Source: Candidatus Kaiserbacteria bacterium
GTDB taxonomy: Bacteria; Patescibacteriota; Minisyncoccia; Phycocordibacterales; UBA2100
NCBI GenBank assembly: GCA_023267655.1
Contig: JAHFMV010000002.1
Location: 7,228 to 71,227 of the forward strand
Direction of reading: 5' to 3'
DNA length: 64,000 nt
Numbering within the stretch: position 1 is the stretch's first letter; each line of letters begins with the position of its first letter. Shown in pieces: positions 10,336 through 54,665 of the stretch. Under the pieces are notes generated by a model. The model made no database searches. It was not told the origin of the DNA and saw only the letters and a program-made list of their open reading frames with translations. Made by a program: the position numbers and the translations under genes.

Positions 10336-10398
10336 CTCACTCGCCGGCCCGATCAAAAAACAAGGGCGTCGCCAAACACGCTGGCGACGCCCTTCGAC

Positions 10399-32350: not shown

Positions 32351-32658
32351 TCCGCGGTGGCGCAACGGTAGCGCAGCTCGCTGTCGAAGGCAGCTTCTTA
32401 GAGGAATCTAAGAATGCAAACGAGGAGAATTGCTGGAAGCCCGAACTTGAAATAGTGGGTAATCAGCAGCCGAGCTCACGAAAGTGAGAAGGTTCAGAGA
32501 CTATCCGAAAGGAGTAGTCCCATGAGATAGGCACAGCCGCCATCTCACGGGACGAAGCACCTCGCACCCAGAACGGGTGATGATATAGTCCACCCCCTTT
32601 GGAAACATTGGGACAAAGTGTAACGAGTTGGTTGTAGGTTCGAATCCTACCCGCGGAG
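32351..32658 (+). tRNA. tRNA-Asn (anticodon GUU) interrupted by a group I intron in the anticodon loop.
   Basis: 5' exon 32351-32384: TCCGCGG acceptor, D-arm GCGC-AACGGTA-GCGC, anticodon stem GCTCG, loop CTGT. 3' exon 32621-32658: TAA, CGAGT, variable TGGTT, T-arm GTAGG-TTCGAAT-CCTAC, acceptor CCGCGGA, discriminator G. The spliced anticodon loop is CTGTTAA. Confidence 0.7.
32385..32620 (+). ncRNA. Group I self-splicing intron within tRNA-Asn.
   Basis: P-like AATTGCTGGAA, Q-like AATCAGCAGCC, R-like GGTTCAGAGACTA and S-like GATATAGTCC elements are present. The IGS GCAGC sits 6 nt into the intron and can pair with the exon end GCUGU. The intron ends in G. Confidence 0.7.
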
Positions 32659-34245
32659 CTCGGTTGGATGATGTGCGAATGCAAGTACCGTGTCAAACGG
32701 TTTTCGCAGCGTAAACTCTAGCGTTTTTTCGTTTACGGTCGGGTTCTGAAGTAAATACCCCAAAATTGTCCTTTTCTCATCAGGTTCAGAACTTTCGAAG
32801 ATTTCACCCATGCGGCGGGACAAGTCGAGGACAGTGCCAACGTGGGTGTGATACTGATGATCCGCCTTTGTGTATGCTTCTAATTCCGCGTTCAAACGGT
32901 ACTGTTCTTCCTTCAATTCCTGCAACTTATTGTCGTAGTCTTCCTGTGTAATACCCATGTCGAGACGCATATCAAGCAGTGCGTTGACCTTGCGCTGCGC
33001 TCTATCGTATTCGCCACGAATGCGTGCTATTTGCCGCTCATGGTACACAGCTTCGTGCTCATTGAGCTCACGAAGTTCTGCCACCAGCCTTTCCTGCACC
33101 TCATGCGGAATCATCTTGAAAGCATCAAATACGGCGTGTACTGGTTCCAAAAGCTTTTTCTCTGGGACATAGTCTCGCTTGCATATCCCTTTCGCATTTG
33201 TACAGGAATAATAAATGAATTTACCTTTCTTTATTTCGGGACTCAGCATGCAACCGCAGTTGTTGCAGCGCAAAAGACCTTTCAACACATATGGCTTTGA
33301 AAGAAGCTTTGAGCGACGGGTGCTTCTACCGCGAAGCACGTCCCGACATTCTTGGAACAAATCAGGTGTAATGAGCTTCGGGTACTTGTGAGGATATTCG
33401 CCATATTTTTTTGATACCGCCATGCCGCACAAAAACGTGTCTTTAAGCATCAGCTCTATATTGCTTCGTGATAACTTTTGCCCCTTAAGACCGCGTAAAC
33501 CCATGCGATCAGCCTCTTTCCACAACGTTGTTATGGAATAGCCACCTGTAGCGTACATTTCAAACAATTTACGTATGATAGGAGCGCGTACCTCATCGAG
33601 AATAATATCGGTTTCGATTACCTCGCCCTTCTCGTTTCGCCGCTGCTTTCGGACGTAGCCGATGCGGGGGTTTCCTGTCCACTCACCAACTCGCCGCTTC
33701 TGCTCGAATGCTCGTTTTACATTATCGCTGATCGCGTTCGAATAATACTCAGCAAGGTTCAGACTGATGCCGAATTGGAATTTACTATTTGCGGTTCCAT
33801 CGCCGTTTATAACTTGATTGTCCGAGGCGAAATGTAATTCGATTTTCCCACTTCTCGCCAATTCGCACAGTAACGCCACCCGTTTATCGAAGACGTTGCG
33901 TGAAAAACGATCTACCTTATCGAAGCACACAGCGACCTTTTCGAACTTCGCCCTTGCCTGTATATACAGCAAAGCTTCGTCGAACACGTCTCTCTTTTCC
34001 TTGTACGCACTTTCGTCAAAACTAAACACTTTCTCGACCTCAAACCCCTTACGTCGACAGTGATTTTTCATTCGCTCGATCTGTGCCGGCAAAGAATTAC
34101 CTGCTTCCTGCTGCTCTGCCGTGGACACTCTGGCGATATTGATTGATTTCATTGTGTTTTCTTTAATTTTACCCCATATCCGCGACGCGAAGTCACGTAA
34201 AATGGCTGATAACTTTTCAAGGATGCTGTCATTTTTTTGAACCAC
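32647..34245 (-). CDS. Large serine recombinase (integrase); the likely start is MKSINIARVST, near 34152.
   Basis: An N-terminal resolvase domain with catalytic Ser (ARVST) and DRFSRN, followed by a recombinase domain, a zinc ribbon (CNNCGC...CTNAKGIC) and a coiled coil. The last codons and stop overlap the tRNA-Asn 3' end. Confidence 0.85.
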   Translation of the reverse strand: MVQKNDSILEKLSAILRDFASRIWGKIKENTMKSINIARVSTAEQQEAGNSLPAQIERMKNHCRRKGFEVEKVFSFDESAYKEKRDVFDEALLYIQARAKFEKVAVCFDKVDRFSRNVFDKRVALLCELARSGKIELHFASDNQVINGDGTANSKFQFGISLNLAEYYSNAISDNVKRAFEQKRRVGEWTGNPRIGYVRKQRRNEKGEVIETDIILDEVRAPIIRKLFEMYATGGYSITTLWKEADRMGLRGLKGQKLSRSNIELMLKDTFLCGMAVSKKYGEYPHKYPKLITPDLFQECRDVLRGRSTRRSKLLSKPYVLKGLLRCNNCGCMLSPEIKKGKFIYYSCTNAKGICKRDYVPEKKLLEPVHAVFDAFKMIPHEVQERLVAELRELNEHEAVYHERQIARIRGEYDRAQRKVNALLDMRLDMGITQEDYDNKLQELKEEQYRLNAELEAYTKADHQYHTHVGTVLDLSRRMGEIFESSEPDEKRTILGYLLQNPTVNEKTLEFTLRKPFDTVLAFAHHPTELRG

Positions 34246-35291
34246 TCATCTGCTCTCATGCCTCTTAAGCGCGGCGCTGTCGTATTGAATTTACGTGCAA
34301 AGCGAGACCACGTTCGCGCGTTCACGAAGGCATCAAGCACGATGCGGAGCTCACGCATACCACCGCAATTACGCGCAAGCATGATGAGACCAACGAGCTC
34401 TATAGCTTCTGCCGCTTTTGCTGGATGCGTCGCCAGTACTTTATACAGCACGTGCTTTGCAGATCTTTTAGGTCCGAATATGACGCCGCGCCAGTTTAAT
34501 GTCGCCGCATCCCAGTAATCGCGAAGGATCGTTTGGCTCTTTTGCGATGAAAAGACATCGGAAAACGCGGGATTCATCCCGAAACCGTGCCGCGCGAATA
34601 CAGCGTTTAACTTTACCCTAGCCGTGAGTTGTACCTCAAAGCGAAGGATATTTTGCCCGCGCAATCTGGCGGCAAGTCTTGTCTGTGCCTGTTGCCACTT
34701 TTTGCCTCTGCCCGTTTTTTTTGATAGTTCAGCCACCTTGTCATAGAACGTGAACGAATGCTGACTCGCCGTCGCCTTGAGACCCTGACCACCATTGCGA
34801 TAGTGCGTGTATGACACATCAACACCTCGGCGGACCATCAGCTTTTCCAGCTCTTTCATGACCCCCGTAATGGGTGCGCGTTTCCCAAGCAAGACATTTT
34901 TGGAATAATCTACCCGCATGATCTTCGCATTTCGAATCTCTTTTGCCGTGAGGTCGATCCCCATCATGCTTAGCCGAGATTGCAGAACCGAAAGAACCAC
35001 GTCGAAATCCGCATCAACCACTTCGTCCACATTATTGCCGTAAAGCAGCTTCGGAACAGAGAACTGGATCTTAATCCTTGATGTCACCCCATGCTTCTTA
35101 CTCATGTTGTTTACCCCTGTAATTTGCGGGAAATAGTGCTCGCTTCCACGCTCTTCCTTGGAGGGATCACGATAAAAGGTCTCATATCCTTTCCCTCGCG
35201 TACCGCCATCCCACATCGGTCTGCCTTTGGTGTCCACATCGCGTGCCGTTAAATTTCCTTGCGACACCGCGAGAATAACAGTGTCGATCAT
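34149..35291 (-). CDS. Putative rolling-circle replication initiator (Rep_trans / phage gene II-like).
   Basis: RVDYSKN and FTFYDKVAE motifs resemble the Rep_trans RxD..D and YDK signatures. It is adjacent to iteron-like repeats. Confidence 0.4.
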   Translation of the reverse strand: MIDTVILAVSQGNLTARDVDTKGRPMWDGGTRGKGYETFYRDPSKEERGSEHYFPQITGVNNMSKKHGVTSRIKIQFSVPKLLYGNNVDEVVDADFDVVLSVLQSRLSMMGIDLTAKEIRNAKIMRVDYSKNVLLGKRAPITGVMKELEKLMVRRGVDVSYTHYRNGGQGLKATASQHSFTFYDKVAELSKKTGRGKKWQQAQTRLAARLRGQNILRFEVQLTARVKLNAVFARHGFGMNPAFSDVFSSQKSQTILRDYWDAATLNWRGVIFGPKRSAKHVLYKVLATHPAKAAEAIELVGLIMLARNCGGMRELRIVLDAFVNARTWSRFARKFNTTAPRLRGMRADEWFKKMTASLKSYQPFYVTSRRGYGVKLKKTQ

Positions 35292-35482
35292 ACGGGCTGT
35301 CGCTCTGTATACAGATGCGAATTAACCCGCCTATCAATTCGGAGAAGCAGATCGTAGAGGCGTACAAGATTTCTCTCGCCGCTAAAATCATCTAATAACG
35401 CAGCAATGGCTGCACTTTTCTCGATTCCGCGCGGCTGCGGATCGCGGGACGCATTGTGCATCCCGATTTCTTTCTCGCTCAT
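35288..35482 (-). CDS. Small hypothetical protein upstream of rep.
   Basis: 64-aa ORF overlapping the rep start by 4 nt. Confidence 0.25.
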   Translation of the reverse strand: MSEKEIGMHNASRDPQPRGIEKSAAIAALLDDFSGERNLVRLYDLLLRIDRRVNSHLYTERQPV

Positions 35483-35600
35483 AGTGAGCTCTGTCGTTTA
35501 CACCCACAGGATCGCGTAAAACGCGCCCTACAGGTTGCGAGATAGGAAGTGGCGGGTCGGACTAGACCCCATCACGCCAAATAATGGCTTTAGACATCAT

Positions 35601-35701
35601 TTGACTACGTTGTGCCGCTTATTCGTACACCACTTCGGTACGAAATACATATTGAAACGCTTTGTTGCGGGATTTTCCCCGCCTTTGTGCCGCTTTATTC
35701 A
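35601..35701. repeat. Iteron-like direct repeats TTGTGCCGCTT(T)ATTC, followed by an AT-rich stretch; candidate origin.
   Basis: Two copies 85 bp apart (35601.. and 35686..), then the AT-rich run caatttatttttatttacttattcc at about 35780. Confidence 0.35.
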
Positions 35702-36015
35702 AACTTATACAGCGTAAACCACTTAACTTACCGAGAAGTATATTCGAGATTAACGAAAAGTCAATACCATTTTGTGTCGCAATTTATTTTTATTTACTTA
35801 TTCCATGCCGCGAGGGCATTTTTTCTCTGAAATCGGAGTGTATGTCCTCGGACTTACTACAAACTCTTGAAATGGCTCAAGAGAGCCGTTTCTATTTTTG
35901 TCGCGACCACGTGCGTGTGTCTCTTTGAATCTTCGCCGCAATTGCCAACATCCATATCGAAACACTGCATACACCCCTCACGACTTGGAAAGGGTTATTA
36001 ATAACTATTTGCACC

Positions 36016-36207
36016 ATGAAAATGTATATTGAGCCGCTGTACCGCCTCGTGTGGGACGAGGCGCAGGGCGCGTACGTCGAGACGGGGGAGCTTCTGGGCT
36101 ACAAAGCTGTGGATTGGCTCGGGCAGATCATCGCATTCGGCGAGAGCCGCGAGGCGGCGTACGAGAATGCGCTGGACGCGGCAGCAGACGTCCTCGGGGG
36201 TGTGTAG
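36016..36207 (+). CDS. HicB-like (UPF0150) small protein.
   Basis: 63 aa. YVETGELLGY...GESREAAYENALDA resembles the HicB_lk antitoxin fold. Confidence 0.4.
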   Translation: MKMYIEPLYRLVWDEAQGAYVETGELLGYKAVDWLGQIIAFGESREAAYENALDAAADVLGGV

Positions 36208-36212
36208 CTGAC

Positions 36213-37352
36213 CTATTCTTTGTGTTCGACGATAAATTTTGCTCGCTGATACAGCTCGTCAAAAGTGAGAATGTCGATGCCATGAATCGACTTGCGAAAT
36301 CGTTGAAAAGTCTCCCGCTTGCTCCGGCTGTCGAGCTGCGAGAGCGAGCCAACCACGATGATTCCTTTCGGCTGAACCGTATAAACGCCTCTACCTTCCA
36401 GCTCGTCTCTGTTGTCCGGCTGCTCTGACCCCGACTTGTCCCACGTCGCCATGTTAGCTTCGATTTGGGACACCGCATCAGTTAACTCTTTCGACAAGCT
36501 CCATGCCCCCGCTCTGATTTCCACGCTACCCTGCAACAGCGGGGTTGCCGGCGTCTTTATTTCAACGAGGACTGTGAAATCTATGTCGCCCGTCGTGGAG
36601 GTAAGGTAATCGCCCTTCTGTCCTCCTTTACCATCCACGCGCGTGCCACCATAATGAGGCTGCGCCTGTTCCTGTTTGAGGATTTGGTAGTTAAGACCAT
36701 AGCCAAAAATCCATTTGTTTTTCTCAAAAAAGCCCTGCCACTCACTCTCCGCGCGGGGAAGCGTTTCGAGCGCTTTTTCAAATCGCTCAAGCACGTCGCG
36801 CCGTTTGAGAAGCTGGTTTATATCCTCATCCGACAACTTTACCTCCGCTGCAGACGAGAGTTTCTTGATGATGCTCACCACGCTCTCCGTATCGCGACCA
36901 CGCAAAGCGGCGACAATCTCCGCTTCGCCCTGCGATATGAGCGAAAAAGCGCCCTGCGGTATCTCTATATCGCGCAAGGATTGCAGGAATGAAATGAGTT
37001 GCCAAAAATTCTCGTGGCATTCCTCCAAACTAACGTTCGCTTTGAGCACGTAAGTGTTTTCCTCGATAGCCCCGCTTTCTTCGAAGATCTTTTGACTTTT
37101 GTCTCGTATGGAGAACGCGAGGCGCGGGGTGAATTTTTCGCCCTTCTTGATGAGGGACACTTTGCAGACGTAGCTCACGCGCGGGCGTTCGTGCAGCACA
37201 AACTGCGTAATCAGCCGTCTTTGCTGGGTGTGGTAGAAGTAGTAAAAGTTATCGACTGCCGGCGCAGAGTTGATCTGGAGGTGGGCAAAGTCATGTTTAC
37301 CAATGACGAAATCCTCGCCATCGCTCCACCCAATAAGCTCGCTGAATTTCAT
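36213..37352 (-). CDS. Shedu-like DUF4263 PD-(D/E)xK nuclease-domain protein.
   Basis: C-terminal GDIDFTVLVEIKTP (D...EIK PD-ExK motif) and GIIVVGS. The size of about 380 aa matches SduA. Confidence 0.5.
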   Translation of the reverse strand: MKFSELIGWSDGEDFVIGKHDFAHLQINSAPAVDNFYYFYHTQQRRLITQFVLHERPRVSYVCKVSLIKKGEKFTPRLAFSIRDKSQKIFEESGAIEENTYVLKANVSLEECHENFWQLISFLQSLRDIEIPQGAFSLISQGEAEIVAALRGRDTESVVSIIKKLSSAAEVKLSDEDINQLLKRRDVLERFEKALETLPRAESEWQGFFEKNKWIFGYGLNYQILKQEQAQPHYGGTRVDGKGGQKGDYLTSTTGDIDFTVLVEIKTPATPLLQGSVEIRAGAWSLSKELTDAVSQIEANMATWDKSGSEQPDNRDELEGRGVYTVQPKGIIVVGSLSQLDSRSKRETFQRFRKSIHGIDILTFDELYQRAKFIVEHKE

Positions 37353-37354
37353 AC

Positions 37355-37885
37355 GTGAGGGCTTTCAACATAGCACTTCCCGCCCTTGCAATAAAGCAAG
37401 GAGACAGAGGGCTCCCGTGCTATATTGTGCGGCATATGAAGACGACGGGCGTCGTGCTGGCAGGCCTATTCTCGATTTTGCTCGTCTTGATTATCCTCAA
37501 ATTGATGGGCTACAGCTTCAATAAAGACTACTTCAGCTTTGATAAGCAGCAGTGCATCGCGAGCGAGGATGAGACCCGCGCAGGCCATTCAGGTATACAG
37601 GGGTGCATATTTTGGATGAGAAACGATTACTTGGAAAAAACGCAGTCGTGGAAAGACGAGTTTGCAAAAGACACAGACTACTGCAATGAAAAATACGGAG
37701 GAGATACCACAAAGGCCGCAAGCTATGCGGGGTTCAAATCACTGAGCGACCCAAGATGCAACTATGGTCCATTTACGAACCAAAAACGGCAAGAAAACTG
37801 GGCATACCTCGTTTCAAAAGAACAAGACGGATTTTACGCATATTGTGTCGAACAAATCTGTCCCGACCAACGCCTTTTCAAATAA
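37355..37885 (+). CDS. Membrane-anchored cysteine-containing hypothetical protein; the likely start is MKTTGVVLAG.
   Basis: An N-terminal TM helix, then a Cys-containing extracytoplasmic domain. Confidence 0.4.
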   Translation: MRAFNIALPALAIKQGDRGLPCYIVRHMKTTGVVLAGLFSILLVLIILKLMGYSFNKDYFSFDKQQCIASEDETRAGHSGIQGCIFWMRNDYLEKTQSWKDEFAKDTDYCNEKYGGDTTKAASYAGFKSLSDPRCNYGPFTNQKRQENWAYLVSKEQDGFYAYCVEQICPDQRLFK

Positions 37886-37943
37886 AGGGAATGCCGCAGT
37901 TGCCACGAATAGCCAGTAAACTGCCGAGTGCTATGATAATGGT

Positions 37944-38288
37944 ATGAAATTAGAAACATTTTTTGGATTGCAGAAAGAAGTACAAGAGTGCGTGGAAAAG
38001 TTTAATTTCAACTGGACTAACTATGTGCAATACATCCACCTTGTTGAAGAGGTAGCGGAATTGGGGGAAGCGCTCACAGTGCATCAGGGAGACAGAAAAG
38101 CTGGTTCTGGTGAAAATGCATTAGCCGACCACCACGACACAAGGGAAGAATTGGGGGATGTTTTATTTAATGTGATACAGATAGCAAATCAGTTAAATCT
38201 CAATCTTGATGAGGTAATGGAGGAAACTTTTGCACGATACGAGGAAAAGTTAAAAAGGCTTAAGAATCAGGCTGAGACGTCCGCATAA
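37944..38288 (+). CDS. MazG-like nucleotide pyrophosphohydrolase.
   Basis: EEVAELGEA and EELGDVLFNV, the all-alpha NTP-PPase motifs. Confidence 0.65.
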   Translation: MKLETFFGLQKEVQECVEKFNFNWTNYVQYIHLVEEVAELGEALTVHQGDRKAGSGENALADHHDTREELGDVLFNVIQIANQLNLNLDEVMEETFARYEEKLKRLKNQAETSA

Positions 38289-39931
38289 AGCACAGACGCG
38301 GGGAGTACGTGGACGAAGGTGCGATAATCCCCTATACAATCAGCACAGTCATGAAGGAGGATAGTGCCGGAATGTAAGCCAGCTCCTTCACCGCTGCTGC
38401 CCACGCTTGAGTTCTGAACTCGTCCAGCCTGGGGAGCCCAGACTTGGATTGACTTGAATTCGCCGGTTATCGAATCGGGATTTTGGCGCGCGGCGCGAAG
38501 CGCCGCGTAGAGAGGATGCGCCGTGCCGGAGATTTTTTGATTGTAGAGTTGCAGGTTCGAGCCGAAGATTTTTTGAATTGCGGATTTTTTGGCGGGGAGA
38601 GAGGGGTTGCTTGGGATTTCAGCAAGGTTTTCTGCCTCCTTTATCCACTCACGCATGGGTTCGAGCCACGCGCTGCCGTCCCGCTCCAAACGCACAATTT
38701 GTTCCAATAACGTCCGCTTGTGGGACAACAGTGCGCGACGCTTCGCCAAGTATGCGTCGCGCTCAATTTCCTGCGCAATATAGAGATCCAAAACGCGGTC
38801 GAGTTTGCGGTCTATTTCGTTCATTTCGTCCCGTAAGCCAGAAATTGTCTGCGCGCTTGTGCGCTCCGCATCGCGTTCATCCACTTGCGTTCTGCGCCCG
38901 AAGTCGTGCGCCCATTCGGGCGGCAGGACAAAGAGCGAAAGCAGATTCGAAATATCAGTAACGAGATTTTCTTCACGCACGTAGGATTGCGTGCAGTGAA
39001 TCGACTTTTTTGTGCAGCGATAGTAAACATATCGGTGAAAATTGCCGTTCTTTTGGTGTTTCTCACGCACCTCGGCCGTGATAGCCATGCCACATTCACC
39101 ACACGACATGAGACCGCAAAATACTTGCGGCTGTGTCGTCGCGGCTTGCGGATGCCCTCGTTCGACAACTACTTTTTGTACTTTATCGAACAGCCGCTTG
39201 TCCACGATTGGCGTATGACGTCCCTCATATAGTTCGCCCATGTAGAGAAAAAGACCGCAATAAAACGGATTGGTGAGAATGAATTTCACGCGGTCGTCGT
39301 GGATACGATTACCGTATAAACTGCGCACTCCATTGTCGTAAAGAAACTTACCAATGTCTTCTACTCGCGAATTGCCTTTAGAATATTTCTCAAACGCGGC
39401 CTGAATTATTTTCGATTTCTTCTTATCAAGCATGATTGTTTTAGTGCGCGGATCGTTTCGATACCCCACCGGCGCAGTACCCGGGAAATCACCGCGCCGC
39501 GCTTTCGCGCGAAGCCCTCGCGCAGTGTTCGCGCTCAATTGTCGGATATATTCATTTGCCATGCCGAATTCAACCGACATGATGAGCACATTGTCCTGCG
39601 GCAAATACGTCCGATCGTGGGTTCGTATTTGCTGGATGATTCCCTGTTGCAATAGCCAGCTAATTTGTCCACTGTCCACGGGATTGCGCGAAAGTCGATC
39701 TATCTTCCAACACAAAATGCCCTGCGCCTCGCCCTTTTGGAGTCGCGCCATCATCTCGCTGAACACGGGGCGGCCGGGCATCTTCGCCGAGCGCTTTTCT
39801 ACAAACTGCTCGACTATTTCTAGCCCCTCCCGCAGCGCGAGCGCGTACAACTCTGACAACTGCGCCTCGATAGATAGGACTTGCTTGTCCTCGACATCAG
39901 TGCTTTTGCGGGCGTAGAGGAAATATTTCAT
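38267..39931 (-). CDS. Large serine recombinase (second copy, with a different sequence).
   Basis: YARKSTD...DRLSRN resolvase domain, a recombinase domain, a zinc ribbon and a coiled coil. Its C-terminal coding region (38444-38616) is one arm of a 173-bp inverted repeat. Confidence 0.85.
   Translation of the reverse strand: MKYFLYARKSTDVEDKQVLSIEAQLSELYALALREGLEIVEQFVEKRSAKMPGRPVFSEMMARLQKGEAQGILCWKIDRLSRNPVDSGQISWLLQQGIIQQIRTHDRTYLPQDNVLIMSVEFGMANEYIRQLSANTARGLRAKARRGDFPGTAPVGYRNDPRTKTIMLDKKKSKIIQAAFEKYSKGNSRVEDIGKFLYDNGVRSLYGNRIHDDRVKFILTNPFYCGLFLYMGELYEGRHTPIVDKRLFDKVQKVVVERGHPQAATTQPQVFCGLMSCGECGMAITAEVREKHQKNGNFHRYVYYRCTKKSIHCTQSYVREENLVTDISNLLSLFVLPPEWAHDFGRRTQVDERDAERTSAQTISGLRDEMNEIDRKLDRVLDLYIAQEIERDAYLAKRRALLSHKRTLLEQIVRLERDGSAWLEPMREWIKEAENLAEIPSNPSLPAKKSAIQKIFGSNLQLYNQKISGTAHPLYAALRAARQNPDSITGEFKSIQVWAPQAGRVQNSSVGSSGEGAGLHSGTILLHDCADCIGDYRTFVHVLPASVLYADVSA
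38444..38616. repeat. Inverted repeat IR1, copy 1, inside the recombinase 3' coding region.
   Basis: Near-identical to the reverse complement of 40929-41113. The two copies are confirmed by shared peptides PSLPAKKSAIQKIFGSNLQLYNQK... on opposite strands. Confidence 0.7.
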
Positions 39932-40080
39932 CGTTATTTGAAGGTTACCCTAGAATTTTGTTATCCACATTCATTTGAAATTCACCTGTTGACATGCTAA
40001 TATGATGCTAATCCATTCATTTGGAGGTGGATAGTCCGAATGGGCTAGCGTGAGGGAGTCCCGCAAGGGGCTTTTTCATT

Positions 40081-40884
40081 TTAAGTGAGAAATATCTTTC
40101 CATATCCATCAATTCTCCCGTTATAGAGGTGGCGATTATATTTTTCCGCTACGGCCTTGCAAAGTTGTTGACCATAACTACCCCCCGGACTATCGACTTT
40201 TCCTTTTGCGTGTAGAAGTTCCATGCGGCATGGATAAGCAAGAATGTCGGCAATTTGTAATCCCGTAACATTCGCACTTTTCGGCTGGATCTTTATTTCT
40301 TTCGTAGTTAGAGAATTTTGAAAGAATTCCGGCTTACGAAAATTTGTACCGCTCTCCCACACGTTTTGGTATGCTTCTTTGAGCTGCATATCTTCACGAC
40401 CGCCGCGACTTTCCGCCATCACATCACCCTTAGCATTGTAATAATTGAGAAATCCGCAGTAGCGCTCGAGTAGTGCAACAACGCAATAGTGATATGGATG
40501 TAAGGCTATATTGCCGTACCTTTTCACATGAGCATTTTTATCAATTACAACCGTCAACAGCTTAAAGTCGTACTTTTTCAGAGTGACTAAAAAATCGTCG
40601 TTAAAAGCTCTTTCTTTTGCCGGATCTAGTAGTCGCCAAAACGGGCCTTTTTTATTGATGAGCTCTTTACGATGAAGAATGACGGGTTCGTCCGGATTAT
40701 GCGGAAAATGTCGCTCTTTAAATTCTGTGAAGTCAGGATGGATGACTTTTTTATAGTAGTCGTTTTCAACAATAACACCTGTGATGCCCAAATACCGACT
40801 TACCACGTTATCTTCATTGCGCGAATACACGTGATCTCCGGCCTCATCGAGATAAAGTCGATAGCGTTTTACATCCATGGGCAA
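40081..40884 (-). CDS. DUF3800-family protein.
   Basis: N-terminal YRLYLDEAGD (DEAG/DESG-type motif) and a length of about 270 aa. Confidence 0.5.
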   Translation of the reverse strand: MPMDVKRYRLYLDEAGDHVYSRNEDNVVSRYLGITGVIVENDYYKKVIHPDFTEFKERHFPHNPDEPVILHRKELINKKGPFWRLLDPAKERAFNDDFLVTLKKYDFKLLTVVIDKNAHVKRYGNIALHPYHYCVVALLERYCGFLNYYNAKGDVMAESRGGREDMQLKEAYQNVWESGTNFRKPEFFQNSLTTKEIKIQPKSANVTGLQIADILAYPCRMELLHAKGKVDSPGGSYGQQLCKAVAEKYNRHLYNGRIDGYGKIFLT

Positions 40885-40928
40885 ATAATACCAAATTATG
40901 AGGGACTAAGTGACTCTCGTGGCCGCGC

Positions 40929-41113
40929 GCATGGATTCCGTATCCCCTCTCTCCCCGCCAAAAAATCTGCAATTCAAAAAATCTTCGGCTCGAACCTGCA
41001 ACTCTACAATCAAAAAGTCTCCGGCACGGCGCATCCTCTCTACGCGGCGCTTCGCGCCGCGCTCCAAAATCCCGATTCGATAACCGGCGAATTCAAATCA
41101 ATCCAAGTCTGGG
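40929..41113. repeat. Inverted repeat IR1, copy 2.
   Basis: Reverse complement of 38444-38616 with a few mismatches. Read on the plus strand it continues into IR2 and would give an alternative recombinase C-terminus, ...QVWAQLYQIARTYFSKHDE*. Confidence 0.7.
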
Positions 41114-41382
41114 CTCAACTATACCAAATAGCTCGAACCTATTTTAGCAAACATGATGAGTGATCGGACACGCGCCGCGTGAGTGGTGACGTGTCCCAAC
41201 AAGGTACGCTCCGCGTCCGTGCCAACTCTGACGCCGCCCGCCGCAGCAAAGCTGCGGCAACCCCGAAAGAAACCGCTTCCCATGCATCTCTGTTCGGCGG
41301 GGGTGGGATGCGTATTGAAATGGAATGGGCGGTTTCTTTCGGGGTTCTGCCCTGTGGGCAGGGGGCGACAAACCCCTCAATC
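41113..41382. repeat. Inverted repeat IR2, copy A (about 250 bp), followed by a 14-bp-stem palindromic hairpin at 41383-41415.
   Basis: Identical 80-aa translations on opposite strands (41139..41384 minus and 44817..45059 plus) show this is a DNA inverted repeat. The hairpin is AAACCCCTCAATCA-CCCAG-TGATTGAGGGGTTT. Confidence 0.7.
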
Positions 41383-41467
41383 ACCCAGTGATTGAGGGGT
41401 TTGAATTACTGCGAGTTAGCTAGAGCGCGTATTTGTAAAAAGTCTCGAACGTTGTTAGATTAGGGAA

Positions 41468-42025
41468 ATGTCTCCAAATATGAATACTCGCTTAGGTATT
41501 CTCAACATTGTCCCGATAAAAGAGCGCCCGGAATTGCTCGCGGAGCCAGTGGCCAAAGCCATTTCAAACTTGTCGGACGCTGACACAATTGGAGTAACAG
41601 AAATCGATCCACGGTTATCTGATACCACCGCATTTTGTGCGCAATATCAAGTTGATATGAATCGAACCGTTAATTGCGTCGTACTTGAGGCAAAACGAGG
41701 CGATCGCACATGGTTTGCGACGGCCGTTATTTTCGGTGACACTCGTGCTGACGTGAATGGTCTTGCACGGCGCACTCTTGAAGCTCGCAAGGTATCATTT
41801 GCGCCCATGGATCAAGCTGTGGCACAAACAGGAATGGAGTACGGAGGAATTAGTCCTATCGGCATTCCAGCTGACTGGCCTATTCTCATTGATAAGGCAG
41901 TTGCTGATTCGGAATATGTGATTGTTGGCAGCGGTATACGGAAATCCAAGCTCGTGATTCCAGGTAAGATTCTTGCTGCTTTACCAAATGCGAAAGTACT
42001 GGAAAGCCTCGGTCAGAAAAAATAA
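41468..42025 (+). CDS. YbaK/ProX-family aminoacyl-tRNA deacylase (free-standing editing domain).
   Basis: EYGGISPIGIP matches the YbaK GGxSPxG motif. About 185 aa. Confidence 0.55.
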   Translation: MSPNMNTRLGILNIVPIKERPELLAEPVAKAISNLSDADTIGVTEIDPRLSDTTAFCAQYQVDMNRTVNCVVLEAKRGDRTWFATAVIFGDTRADVNGLARRTLEARKVSFAPMDQAVAQTGMEYGGISPIGIPADWPILIDKAVADSEYVIVGSGIRKSKLVIPGKILAALPNAKVLESLGQKK

Positions 42026-42066
42026 GGGCCAGCGAAGTGTTCGCCAGCCCTTCTGCACGCGACCGA

Positions 42067-42855
42067 TCATCGTGTCAAGAGATTCTCCGATTCTACACTG
42101 AGTCTCTTCGCCGCACTTTCGCCGTTCACCACTAACTCCAGCCAACGATGAGTGCCGAAACCAGAACTTCCGACAACCCAACTTAGATTTTTGGGAGTGA
42201 CGTCCGCGAGTTGCTCGGAAAAATCGAGATCTGCGAAACGTGTCAGATTTCTTTCTCCTTTCAAGACAGTCGTCTTGCAGTTGCCGAAAGGATCGTCGAC
42301 ATACCAGACGGCAAGTGGTGCATCGGGCACGACATCTCGTACCTGCATCTTTTGCCCAGGCACTTTCCATCGTGCCGCAATCCACAGAGCAACGCGAGGC
42401 AAGAATTCATAACTCCTAAACTGCGTTGTAGTTACATTCTCTGCTTCAGAGGAAGAAATAAGACGTTTCTTCACCGCCCACTTCATCACCGTCGGAATAT
42501 CGAGAACATGCATTGTCTCTGCGAGTTGAAGTTTTTTTACAAGCGAGAGCGTTTGGCCAGCGACGGTTGACACGAGGAGTGTCTTACCGATGTAGATATA
42601 ACAAAACGGCGTGCCGTTCGGCCATTTTTCTCGCAAGCCATTACGAGGCGCCACGTTCGCAAGCAAAATTCCTTCGCCACCATTACAACGCGCTGCGTCA
42701 AGTGCGTCGACGATATGTCCCGCAGCTTCGAGGTCGTTACGCGCCCCAATGACTTGCGGCAAGAGACCGCAAAGAGACTGAACGCGAAGCGACTGTCGCC
42801 CTGCGGCGTTTCGGCAATCACAATCTGTCACAATGCCAAAGAACTGTATCTTCAT
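42067..42855 (-). CDS. DUF62 / SAM hydroxide adenosyltransferase-like protein (SAM hydrolase family), divergent N-terminus.
   Basis: C-terminal VWYVDDPFGNCKTTV matches the IDxFGNxxTN motif, and GSSGFGTHRWLELVVNGESAAKRL matches the DUF62 C-terminal domain. N-terminal motifs are weak. Confidence 0.45.
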   Translation of the reverse strand: MKIQFFGIVTDCDCRNAAGRQSLRVQSLCGLLPQVIGARNDLEAAGHIVDALDAARCNGGEGILLANVAPRNGLREKWPNGTPFCYIYIGKTLLVSTVAGQTLSLVKKLQLAETMHVLDIPTVMKWAVKKRLISSSEAENVTTTQFRSYEFLPRVALWIAARWKVPGQKMQVRDVVPDAPLAVWYVDDPFGNCKTTVLKGERNLTRFADLDFSEQLADVTPKNLSWVVGSSGFGTHRWLELVVNGESAAKRLSVESENLLTR

Positions 42856-42922
42856 GACCTATCCTTTCGGGCCACTTGCTGCCGAGGACCATTCCTCGAC
42901 AGGATAACGACCCCAAAAAAGA

Positions 42923-42950
42923 AAACCCTCCGCGTTTGCGGAGGGTTTTC
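42923..42950. terminator. Strong bidirectional rho-independent terminator AAAACCCTCCGC-GTTT-GCGGAGGGTTTT.
   Basis: A perfect 12-bp stem flanked by A- and T-tracts. It lies between the Met-rich leader ORF and the DUF62 gene start. Confidence 0.65.
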
Positions 42951-42976
42951 GTGAGATTCTTTTTTTCAAAATTACA

Positions 42977-43048
42977 TCATACGAAATGTTCCTCCGCGCG
43001 AAGGGTCATCATGGCCATCATCATTGCTGCGCGAAGATGCGTATGCAT
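42977..43048 (-). CDS. Candidate Met-codon-rich leader peptide MHTHLRAAMMMAMMTLRAEEHFV.
   Basis: 23 codons with 6 ATG codons clustered at positions 9-14, followed 27 nt later by the terminator. Codons 18-20 (GCGGAGG) duplicate the terminator 3' arm and could form an antiterminator. Confidence 0.35.
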   Translation of the reverse strand: MHTHLRAAMMMAMMTLRAEEHFV

Positions 43049-43165
43049 ATGTCGATGATATCGAGATTTGGAGAGCTGTCAATAGCGGGAGGGCGAACAA
43101 GGACTCTGCATGTTGAATAATGCTACCCTTATGGGTGTGGCGGGAACGTTGTACTATGAGCAGTC

Positions 43166-43678
43166 ATGATTAGAACGGCTAAAATAAGTGACATCGCTCG
43201 GCTTGTTGATATTGATTCTGCAGCCTATGGTTCGTACGGAGCTGACAGGGGCTACTTCGAAGAAAAGTTTGCTTCCGATAATGTGGGCATTCTTGTCGTC
43301 GAAGAAGCTGGGGATGTTAGCGGTTTTTGCGTTTTTGAGATTCTGAGATCGAATCAAATTCCGCCTGATTTTTGCGATTTGAAATTGAGAAAACCACTGG
43401 AAGATACGTGGACACATATTATTGCGTTTACAACGTCAACCAACTATATCGACCTTGAGTCGGATGGTCAGCTGGTTCGAGCCGTAGAAGAAAAAGCGAA
43501 AATCATGGGATCTGATATCTTTTGTGTCCCATTAAGTGTAGAACATCCTTTTGAAAAAAATGACGTCTTCGGCTTTTGGAAGAAGAATGGCTATGAGCGT
43601 GCGGGAACTATCAAGTGGAAAGCCAGTTCGAATGAACTCATTGAGTGTTATTTTTATTGCAAACTCGGCGCTAGATGA
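43166..43678 (+). CDS. GNAT-family N-acetyltransferase.
   Basis: About 170 aa with an acetyl-CoA binding-like core (VVEEAGDVSGFCVFE). Confidence 0.55.
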   Translation: MIRTAKISDIARLVDIDSAAYGSYGADRGYFEEKFASDNVGILVVEEAGDVSGFCVFEILRSNQIPPDFCDLKLRKPLEDTWTHIIAFTTSTNYIDLESDGQLVRAVEEKAKIMGSDIFCVPLSVEHPFEKNDVFGFWKKNGYERAGTIKWKASSNELIECYFYCKLGAR

Positions 43679-43717
43679 TCGAAAACATATCGCCCATAGA
43701 TAGGCTAAAATACGGTA

Positions 43718-44227
43718 ATGGCAGATGACCCAGTCCCACAACCCGTTGAAAGCCCTCAAACACCGGTATCTGACGGGTTAGCGAATGTGCTGATTCCAGA
43801 GCCAGTTTCGGAGCCGACGTCGGAAGCGTCGGCGAGCGCTCCGAGCGAACCGGCGCAGCCGGTGAGCGATGCTGCGGAGGTCGCGGCGGAGCCGCAGAGT
43901 GAACCACCAACGCCAGAAGCAAAACCACAAACGCAATCAGCGACGTCAGCCGCGTCTGCGCCAAGCCTGATTTCCGATAAGACACCCGAGCACGACCGTG
44001 AACTCCTGAAAATCGCGAGAGCGAAAATTCAGACAAAGAAGAGCGAGAAACTGGAGAAAATCATGATGCTGTTTGAGAAGAAAAAGGAAGTCACGAATGA
44101 TGACGTTGAGAAATTGTTGCGTTGCTCCGACGCGACAGCGCGGAGGTATTTGAACGAACTCGTGAAGCAAGGAAAACTCAAGCGCGTTGGTGAGACTGGT
44201 GCAGGCGTCGCGTATATCAAAGCGTGA
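43718..44227 (+). CDS. Acidic/Pro-rich protein with a C-terminal winged-helix HTH.
   Basis: C-terminal DDVEKLLRCSDATARRYLNELVKQGKLKRVG. Confidence 0.4.
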   Translation: MADDPVPQPVESPQTPVSDGLANVLIPEPVSEPTSEASASAPSEPAQPVSDAAEVAAEPQSEPPTPEAKPQTQSATSAASAPSLISDKTPEHDRELLKIARAKIQTKKSEKLEKIMMLFEKKKEVTNDDVEKLLRCSDATARRYLNELVKQGKLKRVGETGAGVAYIKA

Positions 44228-44334
44228 GCTTTGAAATTGAATTTGCATCTAGAGAGTGCCGCGAGCATGTGCAACTTGCTCGCGGCGAGATATGTGCGCG
44301 CATGGGGGGGGGTTGGGGCAAGCACGGGGATTCG

Positions 44335-44704
44335 GGCCTCGGGCATTTCCGCTAGGGCAAGGCCCTTCGGTGAGCGCCGCCGAAATCTTGGAATGGAGAA
44401 GTGTTAGAAGCGGAAGCGACACCACGAAAGCAATCTTGGAAACGAGGAGAGGGGTTGTGCGATGGGCGGACTCCGAAGGCCCGTTAATGCGAGCCATACA
44501 AGTCTGTATCACCATGACCAGAGGACACAACGATAGTGGTTGTGTTACAGCTGCGAGGAGGAGACCGAGCTGGGGAGAGGATTCCTTCCTCTCCCCAATC
44601 AGAAACGGCGCCCGAGCCAGAGAGCCCGCAGGCGATACTGGCGAGGAGAAGCGCCGTACCGAGGCATCTAGGCGCGAGCAGCCCTAGCGGAAATGCCCGA
44701 GGCC
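44335..44704. mobile_element. MITE-like non-autonomous element with 24-bp perfect terminal inverted repeats.
   Basis: TIR GGCCTCGGGCATTTCCGCTAGGGC at 44335-44358 and its reverse complement at 44681-44704. The 322-bp interior is structured and non-coding, for example the GGGGAGAGGA-TTCC-TTCCTCTCCCC hairpin. Confidence 0.45.
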
Positions 44705-44799
44705 GGATGGCCGAGTGGTGCACCCCGTTGGACTTTGCCCTAACCGATAGCGATGACTGAGGCTCAATATGCATTTGCATTCCGTATTTGCATTGAACC

Positions 44800-45076
44800 A
44801 ATCAAATACCGGGTAAATGATTGGTTCCCGCCGCCCCCTGCCCTTGGGCAGAACCCCGAAAGAAACCGCCCATTCCATTTCAATACGCATCCCACCCCCG
44901 CCGAACAGAGATGCATGGGAAGCGGTTTCTTTCGGGGTTGCCGCAGCTTTGCTGCGGCGGGCGGCGTCAGAGTTGGCACGGACGCGGAGCGTACCTTGTT
45001 GGGACACGTCACCACTCACGCGGCGCGTGTCCGATCACTCATCATGTTTGCTAAAATAGGTTCGAGCTATTTGGTA
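44800..45076. repeat. Inverted repeat IR2, copy B, with an inner-side 10-bp-stem palindrome at 44794-44824.
   Basis: Reverse complement of 41113-41382. The hairpin is GAACCAATCA-TTTACCCGGTATT-TGATTGGTTC. Confidence 0.7.
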
Positions 45077-45152
45077 TAGTTGAGCAGATTTCTTAGCTTT
45101 ATCTTGCAAGGCATTTTTAGGTCCCCTTGTTGGACGCTCGAACCTAAATTTG

Positions 45153-45227: not shown

Positions 45228-45416
45228 ATGATTAGCAGCGGACGGTATCTCTACCACCTTCAGGACATCGCCGAAATCAAGGCAATGCCTCAGCCCGTGA
45301 ACTCGATTCAGCAGATGCGTCTCCGCAATATGGAGAGCGAAGTTGCCGAGTTCGAGAAGGCAAACCCCGAAGAAGCGACGCGCCTCCAGGCCCGTGCCAA
45401 GGAACTCGCTTCCTGA
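45228..45416 (+). CDS. Small hypothetical protein.
   Basis: 62-aa ORF with a good promoter and RBS. Confidence 0.4.
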   Translation: MISSGRYLYHLQDIAEIKAMPQPVNSIQQMRLRNMESEVAEFEKANPEEATRLQARAKELAS

Positions 45417-45540: not shown

Positions 45541-46543
45541 CCTAATTGCAACCGGTGCGCCTTCGCCAAAACACACGCCTCGGACTCACAAAGCCGAGGC
45601 GCTTTCTTTGTCGATCGTTGAGACGACGAACAATGTGTGCGAGTTCTGCTGGGGTGATCAGATTGAAGTCGAGTGTCTTCGGAAAGTACTGTCGGAGAAG
45701 TCCATTCGTATTCTCGTTGGTACCGCGCTCCCACGCATGGTACGGGTAGGCGAAGTACACGGTCATGCCGGTCTTCTTCTCAAGGCGCTCCCAATCGCTG
45801 AATTCGATGCCGTTGTCGAGTGTGAAGATCCTGCGTTTCTTCTTTGGAATATGTCGGAAGTGTTCTAGTGCGAGTGAGGTGAGAAGTCGCGACCTCATTT
45901 TGGGAAGCACGAACGCAATGAGGTATCCGCTCCTTCGGTCGACGAAAGAAACGATACGCACGCGCTTGTCTCTTCCCATTAAGGTATCTCCTTCCCAGTC
46001 TCCGATCCTTCCGCGTTTTTGGACGATCGCTGGACGTTCGTCAATGCGTCGTTTCTTCCCTTGTTCTCGGGCTTTTTCACGTATCTTCGTACCGCGCTTT
46101 CTGCGGTATTTGCCCTTTGATGATCGGAGGTACTGCTTCAGGTGTGGTGCACGTTCTTTGAGGTAGCGGTATATCGTACTTGCAACAAGTGACCCACCAC
46201 GCTTTCTCAGAACACCAGCAATCTGCTCGGGCGACTTGTGGAGCTTCAATTCTTTCGTCATGAACCGCAGCAGGGAGCCACGGATCACACGAATGCCCTG
46301 CATTGCATCGACACGCTTCATGTGCTTCCTTCGTCGCACCTCTCGCACGTCGTATCCGTTTCTTCCTCCGTAATCCTTCACGTGCCTCCCCAGTGAACTT
46401 TTGTCTTTGCCGATGGTCCGGGCAATCTCGCTCAGCGAATGACCAGCTCGCAGCATCCGTGCAATGCACGACCAATCCTCCTTCCCAATGTGTGTATGTG
46501 CCATCTTGGCACTGTGAATGCCTCGCGGGGGGTTGCAATTAGC
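45541..46543 (-). mobile_element. IS30-family insertion sequence.
   Basis: Terminal inverted repeats CCTAATTGCAACC (45541-45553) and GGTTGCAATTAGC (46531-46543), flanking a single IS30 transposase gene. Confidence 0.65.
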
Positions 46544-46549
46544 CTGCAA
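45542..46549 (-). CDS. IS30-family DDE transposase; the likely start is MAHTHIGKEDW, near 46504.
   Basis: An N-terminal HTH, plus the catalytic motifs DNGxEF and NTNGLLRQYFPK. Confidence 0.8.
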   Translation of the reverse strand: MQANCNPPRGIHSAKMAHTHIGKEDWSCIARMLRAGHSLSEIARTIGKDKSSLGRHVKDYGGRNGYDVREVRRRKHMKRVDAMQGIRVIRGSLLRFMTKELKLHKSPEQIAGVLRKRGGSLVASTIYRYLKERAPHLKQYLRSSKGKYRRKRGTKIREKAREQGKKRRIDERPAIVQKRGRIGDWEGDTLMGRDKRVRIVSFVDRRSGYLIAFVLPKMRSRLLTSLALEHFRHIPKKKRRIFTLDNGIEFSDWERLEKKTGMTVYFAYPYHAWERGTNENTNGLLRQYFPKTLDFNLITPAELAHIVRRLNDRQRKRLGFVSPRRVFWRRRTGCN

Positions 46550-54176: not shown

Positions 54177-54665
54177 ATGAATCCCGTCGTACATTTTGAA
54201 ATGCCGTTTGAAGACCGCGACCGCGCGGCGAAATTTTATTCGACTGCCTTTGGCTGGAAGCCGCAGATGATGGGACCCGAAATGGGTGAGACGGGGGTGG
54301 GGCCCCGTCGCAAGGCCGGAGGCGCGTCCGGCGCCGAGGCGGGGCCGAGCACTTCGCCAGCAGGCGAAGATGCGTGGCAATATCTCGTCATGCAGACCTC
54401 CGAGACCGATGACAAGGGCATGATCAAGGAAATTGGCCACATTAACGGCGGCATGTTTAAGAAAACGACGGACAATCCTCATCCATCGATCGTGATCTCG
54501 GTGCCCGATATCAAGGCCGCGATGGAAAAAGTGAAAGCTGCGGGCGGAACTGTTTCCTTTACCGAAAACGGCGAACCGATGAATATCCCCGGCATCGGCC
54601 TCTATGTCGGCATTACGGACACCGAAGGCAACCGCGTCTCGATGCTCCAGCCGATGGGGATGTAA
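54177..54665 (+). CDS. VOC/glyoxalase-family protein carrying an in-frame low-complexity insertion encoded by the GC-rich repeat.
   Basis: MNPVVHFEMPFEDRDRAAKFY... is a VOC fold. The insertion GETGVGPRRKAGGASGAEAGPSTSPAGED is encoded by repeat 54291-54352. Confidence 0.55.
   Translation: MNPVVHFEMPFEDRDRAAKFYSTAFGWKPQMMGPEMGETGVGPRRKAGGASGAEAGPSTSPAGEDAWQYLVMQTSETDDKGMIKEIGHINGGMFKKTTDNPHPSIVISVPDIKAAMEKVKAAGGTVSFTENGEPMNIPGIGLYVGITDTEGNRVSMLQPMGM
54291..54352. repeat. Second copy of the 62-bp GC-rich repeat (REP/MITE-like), located inside a CDS.
   Basis: Near-identical to the reverse complement of 10270-10335. Confidence 0.5.

Follow-up and report, generated by a model that had tools for sequence, protein, structure and literature searches.

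Genes and repeats at the locus

The window (the whole stretch of 64,000 nucleotides analysed here, on contig JAHFMV010000002.1 of a Candidatus Kaiserbacteria bacterium) contains a large serine recombinase (LSR) gene and a DUF3800 gene. Most of the recombinase gene and all of the DUF3800 gene are enclosed by an inverted repeat with the arms A and A' (Table 1). Both genes lie in E1, an integrated mobile element of 6.65 kb that belongs to a large LSR-mobilised family of Patescibacteria. Analysis of the repeat boundaries and of related loci suggested that arm A marks the attR end of E1 and that arm A' is part of an internal, inverted attP, a spare copy from which the native C-terminal tail may be re-attached to the recombinase by inversion of the segment between the arms (segment M).

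A repeat search showed that the two arms are identical at 169 of 173 positions (98%, 4 mismatches) with a spacing of 2337 nt. The runner-up inverted match within the 8-kb region has only 34 nt at 74% identity, which excludes chance as the origin of the repeat. The 173-bp repeat claimed in the initial annotation is thus confirmed; its arms had been put in the right place, at 38444-38616 and 40929-41113, with exact ends that were wrong by 3-15 nt. Within the 554-codon open reading frame (ORF), the repeat spans codons ~443-499, which is ~10% of the gene and not the "last third" as had been stated. The content ascribed to the space between the arms, recombinase residues 1-442 plus DUF3800 (Pfam), was correct, as was the short tail read through the second copy, which ends with ...QVWAQLYQIARTYFSKHDE before the stop codon (ORF 40672-41163). 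The repeat ends in a 4-nt core, which reads GAGC on the plus strand at copy A (38434-38437) and GCTC at copy A' (41113-41116).

A second inverted repeat, overlooked by the initial annotation, abuts copy A'. Its arms, B and B', are identical over 240 nt, and their similarity extends to 291 nt at 94.5% identity, with a weaker likeness up to ~41401. Past the identical 240 nt, B and B' each terminate in a perfect hairpin, with a sequence that differs between the two (41369-41403 and 44795-44827). The B segments (41117-41410 and 44790-45081) are exceptionally hairpin-rich, with an RNA fold z-score of -8.6. The B-type segments of relatives are structured too, with a median z-score of -2.2 and values of -4.3 or below at eight loci. 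The two strands of B fold equally well, so that an RNA structure and a DNA palindrome are indistinguishable. B was rejected as a member of a known RNA family, the best Rfam match being snoU13 at 20 bits and E 0.9. The A'/B region was likewise rejected as a stand-alone small ORF, its start codon not being conserved and frameshifts or stops being present in the distal part at many loci.

Contig L001, independently assembled with MEGAHIT and taken from a different ENA assembly, contains both copies of the A repeat with the identical four differences. The linkage in L001 is the same as in the window, with DUF3800 joined to A' and B and the recombinase joined to A and X, the arm that follows A. The orientation in the window is no accident of assembly, since the copies and their linkage are independently reproduced in L001.

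Junctions and layout of the integrated element

The three repeat boundaries have one common 4-nt core, GCTC, and nothing more. Read in the recombinase sense, with slashes marking the edges of the core, site 1 at the gene 3' end (A/X) is ...aagtctgg/GCTC/cccaggctgg..., site 2 at the second copy (A'/B) is ...aagtctgg/GCTC/aactataccaaatagctcgaacc... and site 3 at the far repeat (Y/B') is ...aagaaatct/GCTC/aactataccaaatagctcgaacc.... Site 2 therefore has its left arm in common with site 1 and its right arm in common with site 3, as would result from conservative site-specific recombination. Judged from their sequences, sites 1, 2 and 3 are attR, attP and attL, respectively. The attP-like site of the window is dyad-symmetric (TTCAAA-N15-G/CT/C-N15-CTCGAA), and placement by symmetry points to CT as the probable crossover dinucleotide. 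In the tRNA arm, the motif TTCGAA is found at a spacing of N11. The junctions appear to bear the signature of an att reaction, namely a short common core, recombinant hybrid arms and the lack of a target duplication. What had been proposed as a candidate self-inverting switch, reminiscent of Hin/Gin-type segments, does not stand alone but belongs to an integrated element with its own attL, of which it forms the attR and an inverted attP in the interior (Table 1).

The internal joint of E1 consists of the fused termini of the element in inverted copy, and segments M and N are each flanked by inverted repeats. Eleven related loci that are fully resolved, with sizes of 5.4-10.4 kb, have the same layout, which can be written in general form as Y/B - N - rcB/rcA' - M (cargo, recombinase) - A/tRNA, where rc denotes the reverse complement. 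In the relatives, the inverted repeat stops exactly where the target tRNA gene begins. The cargo is variable and mostly of the defence type, with Shedu, restriction-modification, GmrSD, AbiE and DUF3800 found in these elements. Different cargo occupies the position of DUF3800 in the relatives, and none is present in L078 and L082, in which M consists of the recombinase alone. No phage or conjugation genes were recognised in these elements of 5-10 kb. A search of M and N of the resolved loci for conserved replication genes or genes resembling recombination directionality factors showed that only a family of winged helix-turn-helix (wHTH) proteins recurs (4 of 11 loci). The wHTH protein is a candidate regulator or directionality factor.

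Small winged-helix proteins (DeoR-like HTH or DUF977) adjoin the attL end in the window (43718-44227, plus strand) and at L006:865-1539, L036:1958-2533 and L042:3861-4187. Between convergent or divergent genes of segment N lies a strong bidirectional terminator-like hairpin (42921-42950, 13 bp followed by a T-run), which is the source of weak Rfam 'leader' matches at 42846-43058.

The attachment site within the recombinase gene

The recombinase has the domain order of an LSR, a catalytic serine domain followed by the recombinase domain (RD) and the zinc ribbon domain (ZD). The matches comprise Resolvase (PF00239, E 6e-21, residues 4-148), Recombinase (PF07508, E 2.5e-12, residues 171-256) and Zn_ribbon_recom (PF13408, E 7e-8, residues 271-323), the last with four invariant cysteines. 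The catalytic residues R8 and S10 are invariant in an alignment of 27 sequences. In LSRs, directionality is controlled by a coiled-coil motif inserted in the ZD; in the E1 recombinase, residues ~340-440 form a long stretch of helical appearance. A total of 3532 homologues were found at E<=1e-20, and their alignment to the query reaches only to '...IQVWA'. All homologues with a named source are from Patescibacteria, also known as the Candidate Phyla Radiation (CPR), or from unclassified bacteria; the identity to recombinases of annotated phages and plasmids is at most 27%.

The tails that follow '...WA' in 120 homologues fall into two classes. The majority are diverse and are translations of reverse-complemented tRNA genes (PRVGFEPTTNSLTGSCSTIELPRN, AGLGFEPR and others). 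The minority have the pattern xLYxxxRTYFxxx and are the same as the short tail QLYQIARTYFSKHDE, which is encoded directly after copy A'. The motif xLYxxxRTYF is kept in the native-tail homologues and in nearly all copies of site 2. Comparison of 39 distinct P' arms showed synonymous variation within the tail (Arg as CGA, AGA or CGT; Thr as ACC, ACG or ACT; Phe as TTT or TTC; Leu as CTA, TTA or CTC), indicating that the native tail is translated, is under purifying selection and is part of the enzyme. The short tail, which had been predicted as the recombinase end after a flip, is the genuine C-terminus of the family. The native-tail isoform of the window recombinase itself is absent from a set of 5.8 billion proteins, in which the next match is 77% identical.

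In the species-representative genomes of GTDB, 590 matches were found and 80 loci were examined. The 3' end of the recombinase gene is readable in 57 of these loci and overlaps a tRNA gene on the complementary strand in 38 of the 57, with tRNAs for Asn, Gln, Leu, Glu, Val, Ser, Thr, Tyr, Arg, Ile and Ala among the overlapped genes; in the loci of close relatives, the overlapped gene is tRNA-Asn. Within single clusters at 90% identity, one and the same body is joined at the core to various tRNAs and to the native tail, indicating that recombination at the core is recent and has several targets. These comparisons showed that the attP of the family sits inside the recombinase coding sequence, with the crossover core directly after the last conserved codon (...WA), and that, when the element integrates at the 3' end of an oppositely oriented tRNA gene, the last 13-16 residues are swapped for a read-through product.

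Conservation of the inverted copy

Among the 57 GTDB loci with a readable 3' end, 43 could be assessed for an inverted copy and 14 could not. The copy is present in 40 of the 43 and is missing in three, although each of these has at least 4 kb of sequence upstream. It has a median length of 162 nt and a median identity of 91%, lies 1.8-10.4 kb from the core in the gene and ends exactly at the core. An inverted partial copy upstream of the recombinase was also found by blastn in the first related loci. The initial annotation had held that reads of a single orientation, together with the absence of the second copy from relatives, would indicate a fossil duplication, which is ruled out on these terms by the presence of the copy in 40 of 43. 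The inverted second attP is a conserved design of the element family, to which most relatives conform.

The A and A' copies of one locus have common lineage-specific indels, and the left flank of A' is absent from the gene. In the window, copy A' is homologous to its counterparts in L004-L007, with a common left flank (gcgcgcatggattc...) that is not found in the recombinase gene. The core-proximal 100-115 nt of the copy are in frame and identical to the gene, and the distal part decays and is often frameshifted. Past the core, the copy runs into the in-frame native tail and its stop codon. The core-proximal 100-170 nt of the inverted copy thus evolve in concert with the recombinase gene, probably through conversion tracts that begin at or near the core. 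In the complete spare attP region, the core is flanked by ~110-170 nt from the gene 3' end on one side and by 150-300 nt of hairpin-rich P' sequence on the other. The pair of B and B' recurs wherever the flank is long enough, in at least nine relatives, with lengths of 148-304 nt and identities of 97.5-100%. Many short-read contigs stop about k nt into B. Contigs with left ends 100-140 nt past the inverted copy, within B, are L004, L019, L021, L023, L028, L040, L044, L047, L049, L072 and L080.

Several loci with partial structures were also seen. In L003 (1535-4507), a recombinase segment lies between convergent tRNA-Ala and tRNA-Asn genes, the former abutting a degenerate inverted copy and the latter the gene end, and B is absent. 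This arrangement may have arisen when the internal attP recombined with a second tRNA, by deletion or cassette exchange. The recombinase in L004 and L005 is identical to that of L003 and uses the same tRNA-Asn with other cargo. Scars of the P arm, consisting of 20-45 nt of the recombinase 3' end and the core, occur without a recombinase in the vicinity, next to P' arms or to genes for tRNA-Asn (L100:~820-930, L091:~4610-4830, L107 and L104:~7480-7560); they may be what is left of lost elements, or may represent minimal att sites.

The neighbouring element and the tRNA-Asn gene

The window holds a tandem array of tRNA-Asn, a second element (E2) and E1, which has the features of islands that target tRNA genes, namely integration at the 3' end with the tRNA gene kept intact and tandem accretion at one and the same tRNA. 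E2 encodes a different LSR, unrelated to that of E1, which reads over an identical GCTC core into the 3' end of tRNA-Asn. The attP of the E2 recombinase also lies within the 3' end of its own gene, and its family has a native tail of the form P-x-L-D-x-F-R-T-x-x-W.... Read in the frame of the E2 recombinase, arm X encodes PRLDEFRTQAWAAAVKELAYIPALSSFMTVLIV followed by a stop codon, which resembles the native tails of homologues of that enzyme (PELDGFRTAEWRKALQEIGLIPILSRLVAV in P0253 and PTLDEFRTIDW... in P0207). Because this translation fits the native tails, X is the far end of E2. A TTCAGA motif in X stands at N15 from the core, the spacing of a P' arm. X was rejected as a tRNA or transfer-messenger RNA, since ARAGORN and Rfam (at the gathering threshold and also at E<=5) gave nothing at 38267-38433 and a manual parse fails at the T-arm.

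E2 entered later between E1 and tRNA-Asn with the attR of E1 as its target, and this insertion accounts for the odd long tail of the E1 recombinase. The long tail is not an alternative functional C-terminus but an out-of-frame read-through into the P' arm of this later neighbour. The MazG-like gene, downstream of which a flip had been predicted to place DUF3800 in the same direction, belongs to E2. No inverted att copy was found in E2 or in the family of its recombinase. Since that family has the same in-gene attP and the same tRNA-Asn strategy, the inverted copy is a specific feature of the E1 family.

A group I intron (Rfam RF00028, 62 bits) splits the tRNA-Asn gene within the anticodon loop, and ARAGORN makes no call there; the exons of the gene agree with the tRNA-Asn targeted by the closest homologues. 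Similar introns are present in the target tRNAs of several relatives, in which the recombinase tails read ...HV(T/I)PMFPKGVDYII.... On the other side of E1, an ORF at 45542-46549 on the minus strand, ~450 bp past the attL flank, resembles an IS30-like transposase by eye (no family scan was run), and a 62-aa ORF (45228-45416) lies between the two.

Table 1 Features of the tRNA-Asn, E2 and E1 array in the window
Feature	Positions	Strand	Description
tRNA-Asn(GTT)	32351-32659	+	Chromosomal target (B' arm of attB); group I intron at 32374-32612
Element E2	32660-38433	-	Second integrative element with a different LSR; arrived later
E2 recombinase (LSR)	32647-34245		Pfam; unrelated to the E1 recombinase
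Phage_CRI-type Rep	34149-35291		Pfam; E2
Shedu SduA	36213-37352		Pfam; E2
176-aa ORF			E2 cargo
MazG-like gene	37944-38288		Pfam; E2
X arm	38267-38433	-	P' arm of E2 with the coding end of its native tail; read out of frame by the E1 recombinase (55 aa)
Element E1	38434-45085	-	6.65 kb core to core; assigned order along the plus strand attR - M - inverted attP - N - attL
E1 recombinase (LSR)	38267-39931	-	554 aa; conserved body 1-499, junction read-through 500-554
Repeat copy A	38434-38606	-	P arm of the att site and core, within the recombinase 3' end
DUF3800 gene	40081-40884	-	Pfam PF12686; variable cargo of segment M
Repeat copy A'	40944-41116	+	Inverted partial recombinase 3' end, 57 codons, without start or N-terminal body
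Repeat copy B	41113-41352	+	Core, P' arm and hairpin-rich non-coding stretch
Native C-terminal tail, coding sequence	41116-41163	+	QLYQIARTYFSKHDE and stop; beginning of the P' arm
Segment N	41353-44845		Second cargo segment; orientation as assembled between perfect 240-nt repeats
tRNA_edit/YbaK-like gene	41468-42025	+	Pfam; segment N
SAM_HAT-like gene	42067-42855	-	Pfam; segment N
170-aa ORF	43166-43678	+	Segment N
wHTH protein gene	43718-44227	+	Pfam; segment N
Repeat copy B'	44846-45085	-	Assigned attL junction Y/B', core at 45082-45085; flank Y from 45086

Proposed inversion of segment M and alternative explanations

We assign a probability of roughly 55% to the reading in which the repeats are the attR end and the internal inverted attP of an integrated mobile element, and in which the spare copy may re-attach the native tail by inversion of M. 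The internal copy would act as a functional second att site. Its recombination with the junction at the gene 3' end would invert M and restore the native tail, either through the LSR acting at the core or through RecA-type homologous recombination across the repeat. The homologous route would also explain the concerted evolution and homogenisation of the repeat. A free circle that integrates through the second copy would give the same flipped product. The common orientation, in which the tail is replaced, would then be the quiescent state, and the rare flipped orientation would encode the fully native enzyme.

The predicted flipped configuration was seen in one relative. In L008 and L009, which come from two samples, the locus reads tRNA-Asn/rcA' - cargo - recombinase - A/B, so that the truncated copy abuts tRNA-Asn and the intact gene has its native tail. 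No terminal overlaps were found in the native-tail contigs L008-L010. In L053, a native-tail gene is followed by B, N and rcB, with the repeats bracketing N. In L030, two intact inverted attP regions, diverged from each other (84-88% identity), are present on one 12.3-kb contig without a tRNA.

Several observations weigh against inversion of M. Nearly all resolvable loci are in the orientation of the window, including the complete chromosome L016 (OY970382.1) and the MFD-series loci L013, L015, L029 and L083, which were judged to be long-read by their naming only. In JGI metagenomes, the P arm and core of the window lineage gave four full-gene A/tRNA junctions, at least 12 A'/B junctions and a few scars, and the full-gene A/B junctions of this lineage number zero. 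The wHTH gene of N has one orientation in all 4 loci in which it occurs, indicating that N does not flip freely either. L008 and L009 are short-read contigs with a perfect 115-nt repeat close to k, and mis-pairing by the assembler could create them. The same risk applies to the native-tail short-read contigs L136 and L137, which end inside the perfect repeat. The native-tail proteins P0098, P0124 and P0049 have uninformative contexts, and those of their contigs with DNA end within the perfect repeat. Canonical LSRs recombine only attP with attB in the absence of a directionality factor and are inactive on attL and attR (PMC12286644), so that an inversion catalysed by the enzyme between attP and attR would be non-canonical; homologous recombination would be an adequate alternative. 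Active switching is plausible but unproven and would be at best rare.

A tentative extension of the inversion reading, which we regard as doubtful, is that the enzyme is a self-resetting 'suicidal' serine integrase, in which the loss of the tail upon integration locks the element and the inversion of M restores the enzyme. The loss of the 13-16-residue peptide would be predicted to disable or re-direct the enzyme without a separate directionality factor, and the inverted spare attP would store the missing gene end. Occasional inversion of M, by homologous recombination over the 110-170-bp repeat or by residual activity of the enzyme, would give competence for excision, and the orientation of a DNA segment would encode the activity state of its own recombinase. 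Such a mechanism would explain the rarity of the flipped state, the homogenised repeat and the purifying selection on the tail.

The near-invariant orientation would also be expected if the copy were an ancient neutral relic, that is, an attP duplicated once in an ancestor and refreshed by gene conversion without any function. The frameshifts or stops that are often found in the distal 50-60 nt of the copy point the same way, as do the degenerate remnants and scars in L003, L100 and L091/L107. However, a relic would have had to persist in 40 of the 43 assessable genomes, in which the recombinases have only 53-77% identity to the query and the cargo has been wholly turned over, and the family of the E2 recombinase, which has the same in-gene attP, never acquired a copy. 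The copy has decayed where the element is trapped (L003), suggesting upkeep elsewhere, and a functionless relic is thus unlikely. We consider it quite unlikely that the repeats serve the free form instead, as a circle with two attP sites and two inverted repeats of ~300-450 bp that flip-flops between isomers, for example for replication-coupled amplification or the handling of dimers. Integration would then use the copy at the gene end, and inversion would carry no regulatory meaning. Contig L030, in which both copies are intact without a tRNA, and the inverted fused termini at the internal joint of the 11 resolved loci are consistent with such a circle, as is the almost fixed orientation after integration. 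However, equivalent copies would predict about half of the integrated elements to be flipped, whereas almost none are. Moreover, neither the window nor L030 has a replication gene that could be recognised in segments M and N, the cargo there being of the defence or toxin-antitoxin type.

The inverted copy might also be kept for a role other than recombination, as an operator bound by the recombinase or as an element acting at the RNA level, in which an upstream leader would be complementary to the recombinase 3' end almost perfectly over 110-170 nt, together with the hairpin-rich B. Its position ~60 nt upstream of the DUF3800-recombinase pair in the window and ~110 nt upstream of the recombinase in L078 and L082 would suit this role, as would the extreme structure of B in the window. 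We regard it as very unlikely, since the copy always ends at the crossover core and keeps a complete P' arm, an in-frame tail and a stop codon, which only a recombination site would need; moreover, many loci (L004, L008 and L011) have the intervening cargo on the opposite strand, so that no common transcript would result. An artefact of metagenome assembly, such as a chimera or a mis-joined hairpin, has been effectively refuted. The window is a metagenome-assembled contig, and the perfect 240 nt of B and B' do break short-read assemblies, with L001 stopping exactly 141 nt into B. However, A and A' differ at four positions, and the independent contig and dozens of assemblies from varied studies and assemblers agree on the architecture, the complete single-contig chromosome L016 among them.

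Other repeats in the window

A 40-nt GC-rich sequence (GCGCCTCCGGCCTTGCGACGGGGCCCCAACCCCGTCTCAC) occurs at 10301-10340 and, inverted and 44 kb away, at 54286-54325, with 98% identity; the first copy lies ~270 nt after a tRNA-Val gene (9960-10032). An in-frame 21-nt tandem repeat at 21660-21785 comprises four copies of 63 nt that overlap one another and are 63-78% identical to the reference, and it encodes an acidic heptad-like pattern (...EDI/VxEIQ...). A 43-nt inverted repeat (13538-13580 and 14503-14545, 88% identity) encloses ~0.9 kb, a unit that may be a small element similar to an insertion sequence or a miniature inverted-repeat transposable element, or another invertible segment.

Implications

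The compact integrative elements described here make up a large family in Patescibacteria, with thousands of homologues, in a group of bacteria with very scarce characterised mobile genetics. They use serine integrases with an in-gene attP at tRNA 3' ends, near-identical enzymes being found on several tRNAs, and a review calls the in-gene arrangement exclusive to the tyrosine integrases of archaea (PMC8371274). The inverted second attP creates a two-segment layout that is capable of isomers and has no counterpart among characterised serine-integrase elements. If this layout does switch the C-terminus of the enzyme itself, it would be a new control of the directionality of recombination. The att sites can be read straight from genomes and are a source of new pairs of integrases and att sites for genome engineering. 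The defence cargo makes the elements relevant to the exchange of immunity genes in CPR bacteria. The paired repeats also systematically fragment short-read assemblies, such as metagenome-assembled genomes (MAGs), at these loci.

Comparison with known systems

We found no described system in which a serine integrase with an in-gene attP and tRNA targets is accompanied by an inverted spare attP, nor a published description of the dual inverted-att layout, in a literature search of incomplete coverage. The closest enzymes are the large serine integrases (phiC31, Bxb1, A118/LI and TP901-1; TnpX/TndX; CcrAB). Like the E1 recombinase, they consist of Resolvase, Recombinase and zinc ribbon domains, and their att sites are short, with dyad-symmetric half-sites around a small common core. 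In E1, the P-type and B-type half-sites have the same outer motif at spacings of N15 and N11, respectively, in agreement with what the RD/ZD half-site model of Rutherford et al. in 2013, and of Van Duyne & Rutherford in the same year, is said to propose. Unlike these integrases, the E1 family targets the 3' ends of many tRNA genes, swaps its tail through an in-gene attP and has a second, inverted attP, all within 5-10 kb.

The two-segment layout resembles that of the yeast 2-micron plasmid (FLP/FRT) and of the isomers of herpesvirus and chloroplast genomes, in which two inverted repeats of several hundred bp, each with a recombination site, separate two unique segments and the internal joint corresponds to the fused termini in inverted form. 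However, E1 is integrative, in contrast to the 2-micron plasmid, has a recombinase of another class and has no replication function that was found in M or N.

The intact gene with a silent, truncated, inverted 3' copy is also a feature of the Gin/Cin/Pin tail-fibre segments, the R64 shufflon, phase-variable hsdS loci and intragenic invertons (PMC10028968), and in E1 too the C-terminus would be exchanged by an inversion between repeats that lie in the coding sequence. These systems use small serine invertases or tyrosine recombinases at short identical sites to vary a surface or specificity protein. In E1, by contrast, the gene to be altered is that of the recombinase itself, the sites are hybrids of the att type and switching was not observed. 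The E1 recombinase has a conserved body of 499 aa with RD and ZD, whereas small serine invertases have ~190 aa with a catalytic domain and a C-terminal HTH. Hin/Gin-type systems have two identical inverted sites of ~26 bp and a Fis-bound enhancer, whereas the outer arms of the E1 sites differ (A/X and A'/B).

The archaeal 'suicidal' integrases of the SSV1 type are tyrosine recombinases with the att site in the integrase gene and a tRNA target, and their excision may require an intact copy of the gene (PMC8371274). Similarly, the core of E1 lies after codon 499 within the integrase ORF, the target is a tRNA gene and the product is changed upon integration. However, the E1 enzyme is a bacterial serine recombinase from Patescibacteria MAGs that loses only 13-16 residues, whereas the SSV gene is split into two large parts, and E1 differs from the SSV-type elements in that the missing end of the gene is kept as a spare, inverted copy. 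In the integration-dependent immunity of mycobacteriophage BPs and its relatives, attP lies in the 3' end of an ORF and the swap of the C-terminus is a genetic switch (PMC4557955). The altered gene of BPs is the repressor, its integrase is a tyrosine recombinase and it has no inverted spare att site, unlike E1; like those of BPs, the integrated and the free forms of E1 are predicted to encode different C-termini.

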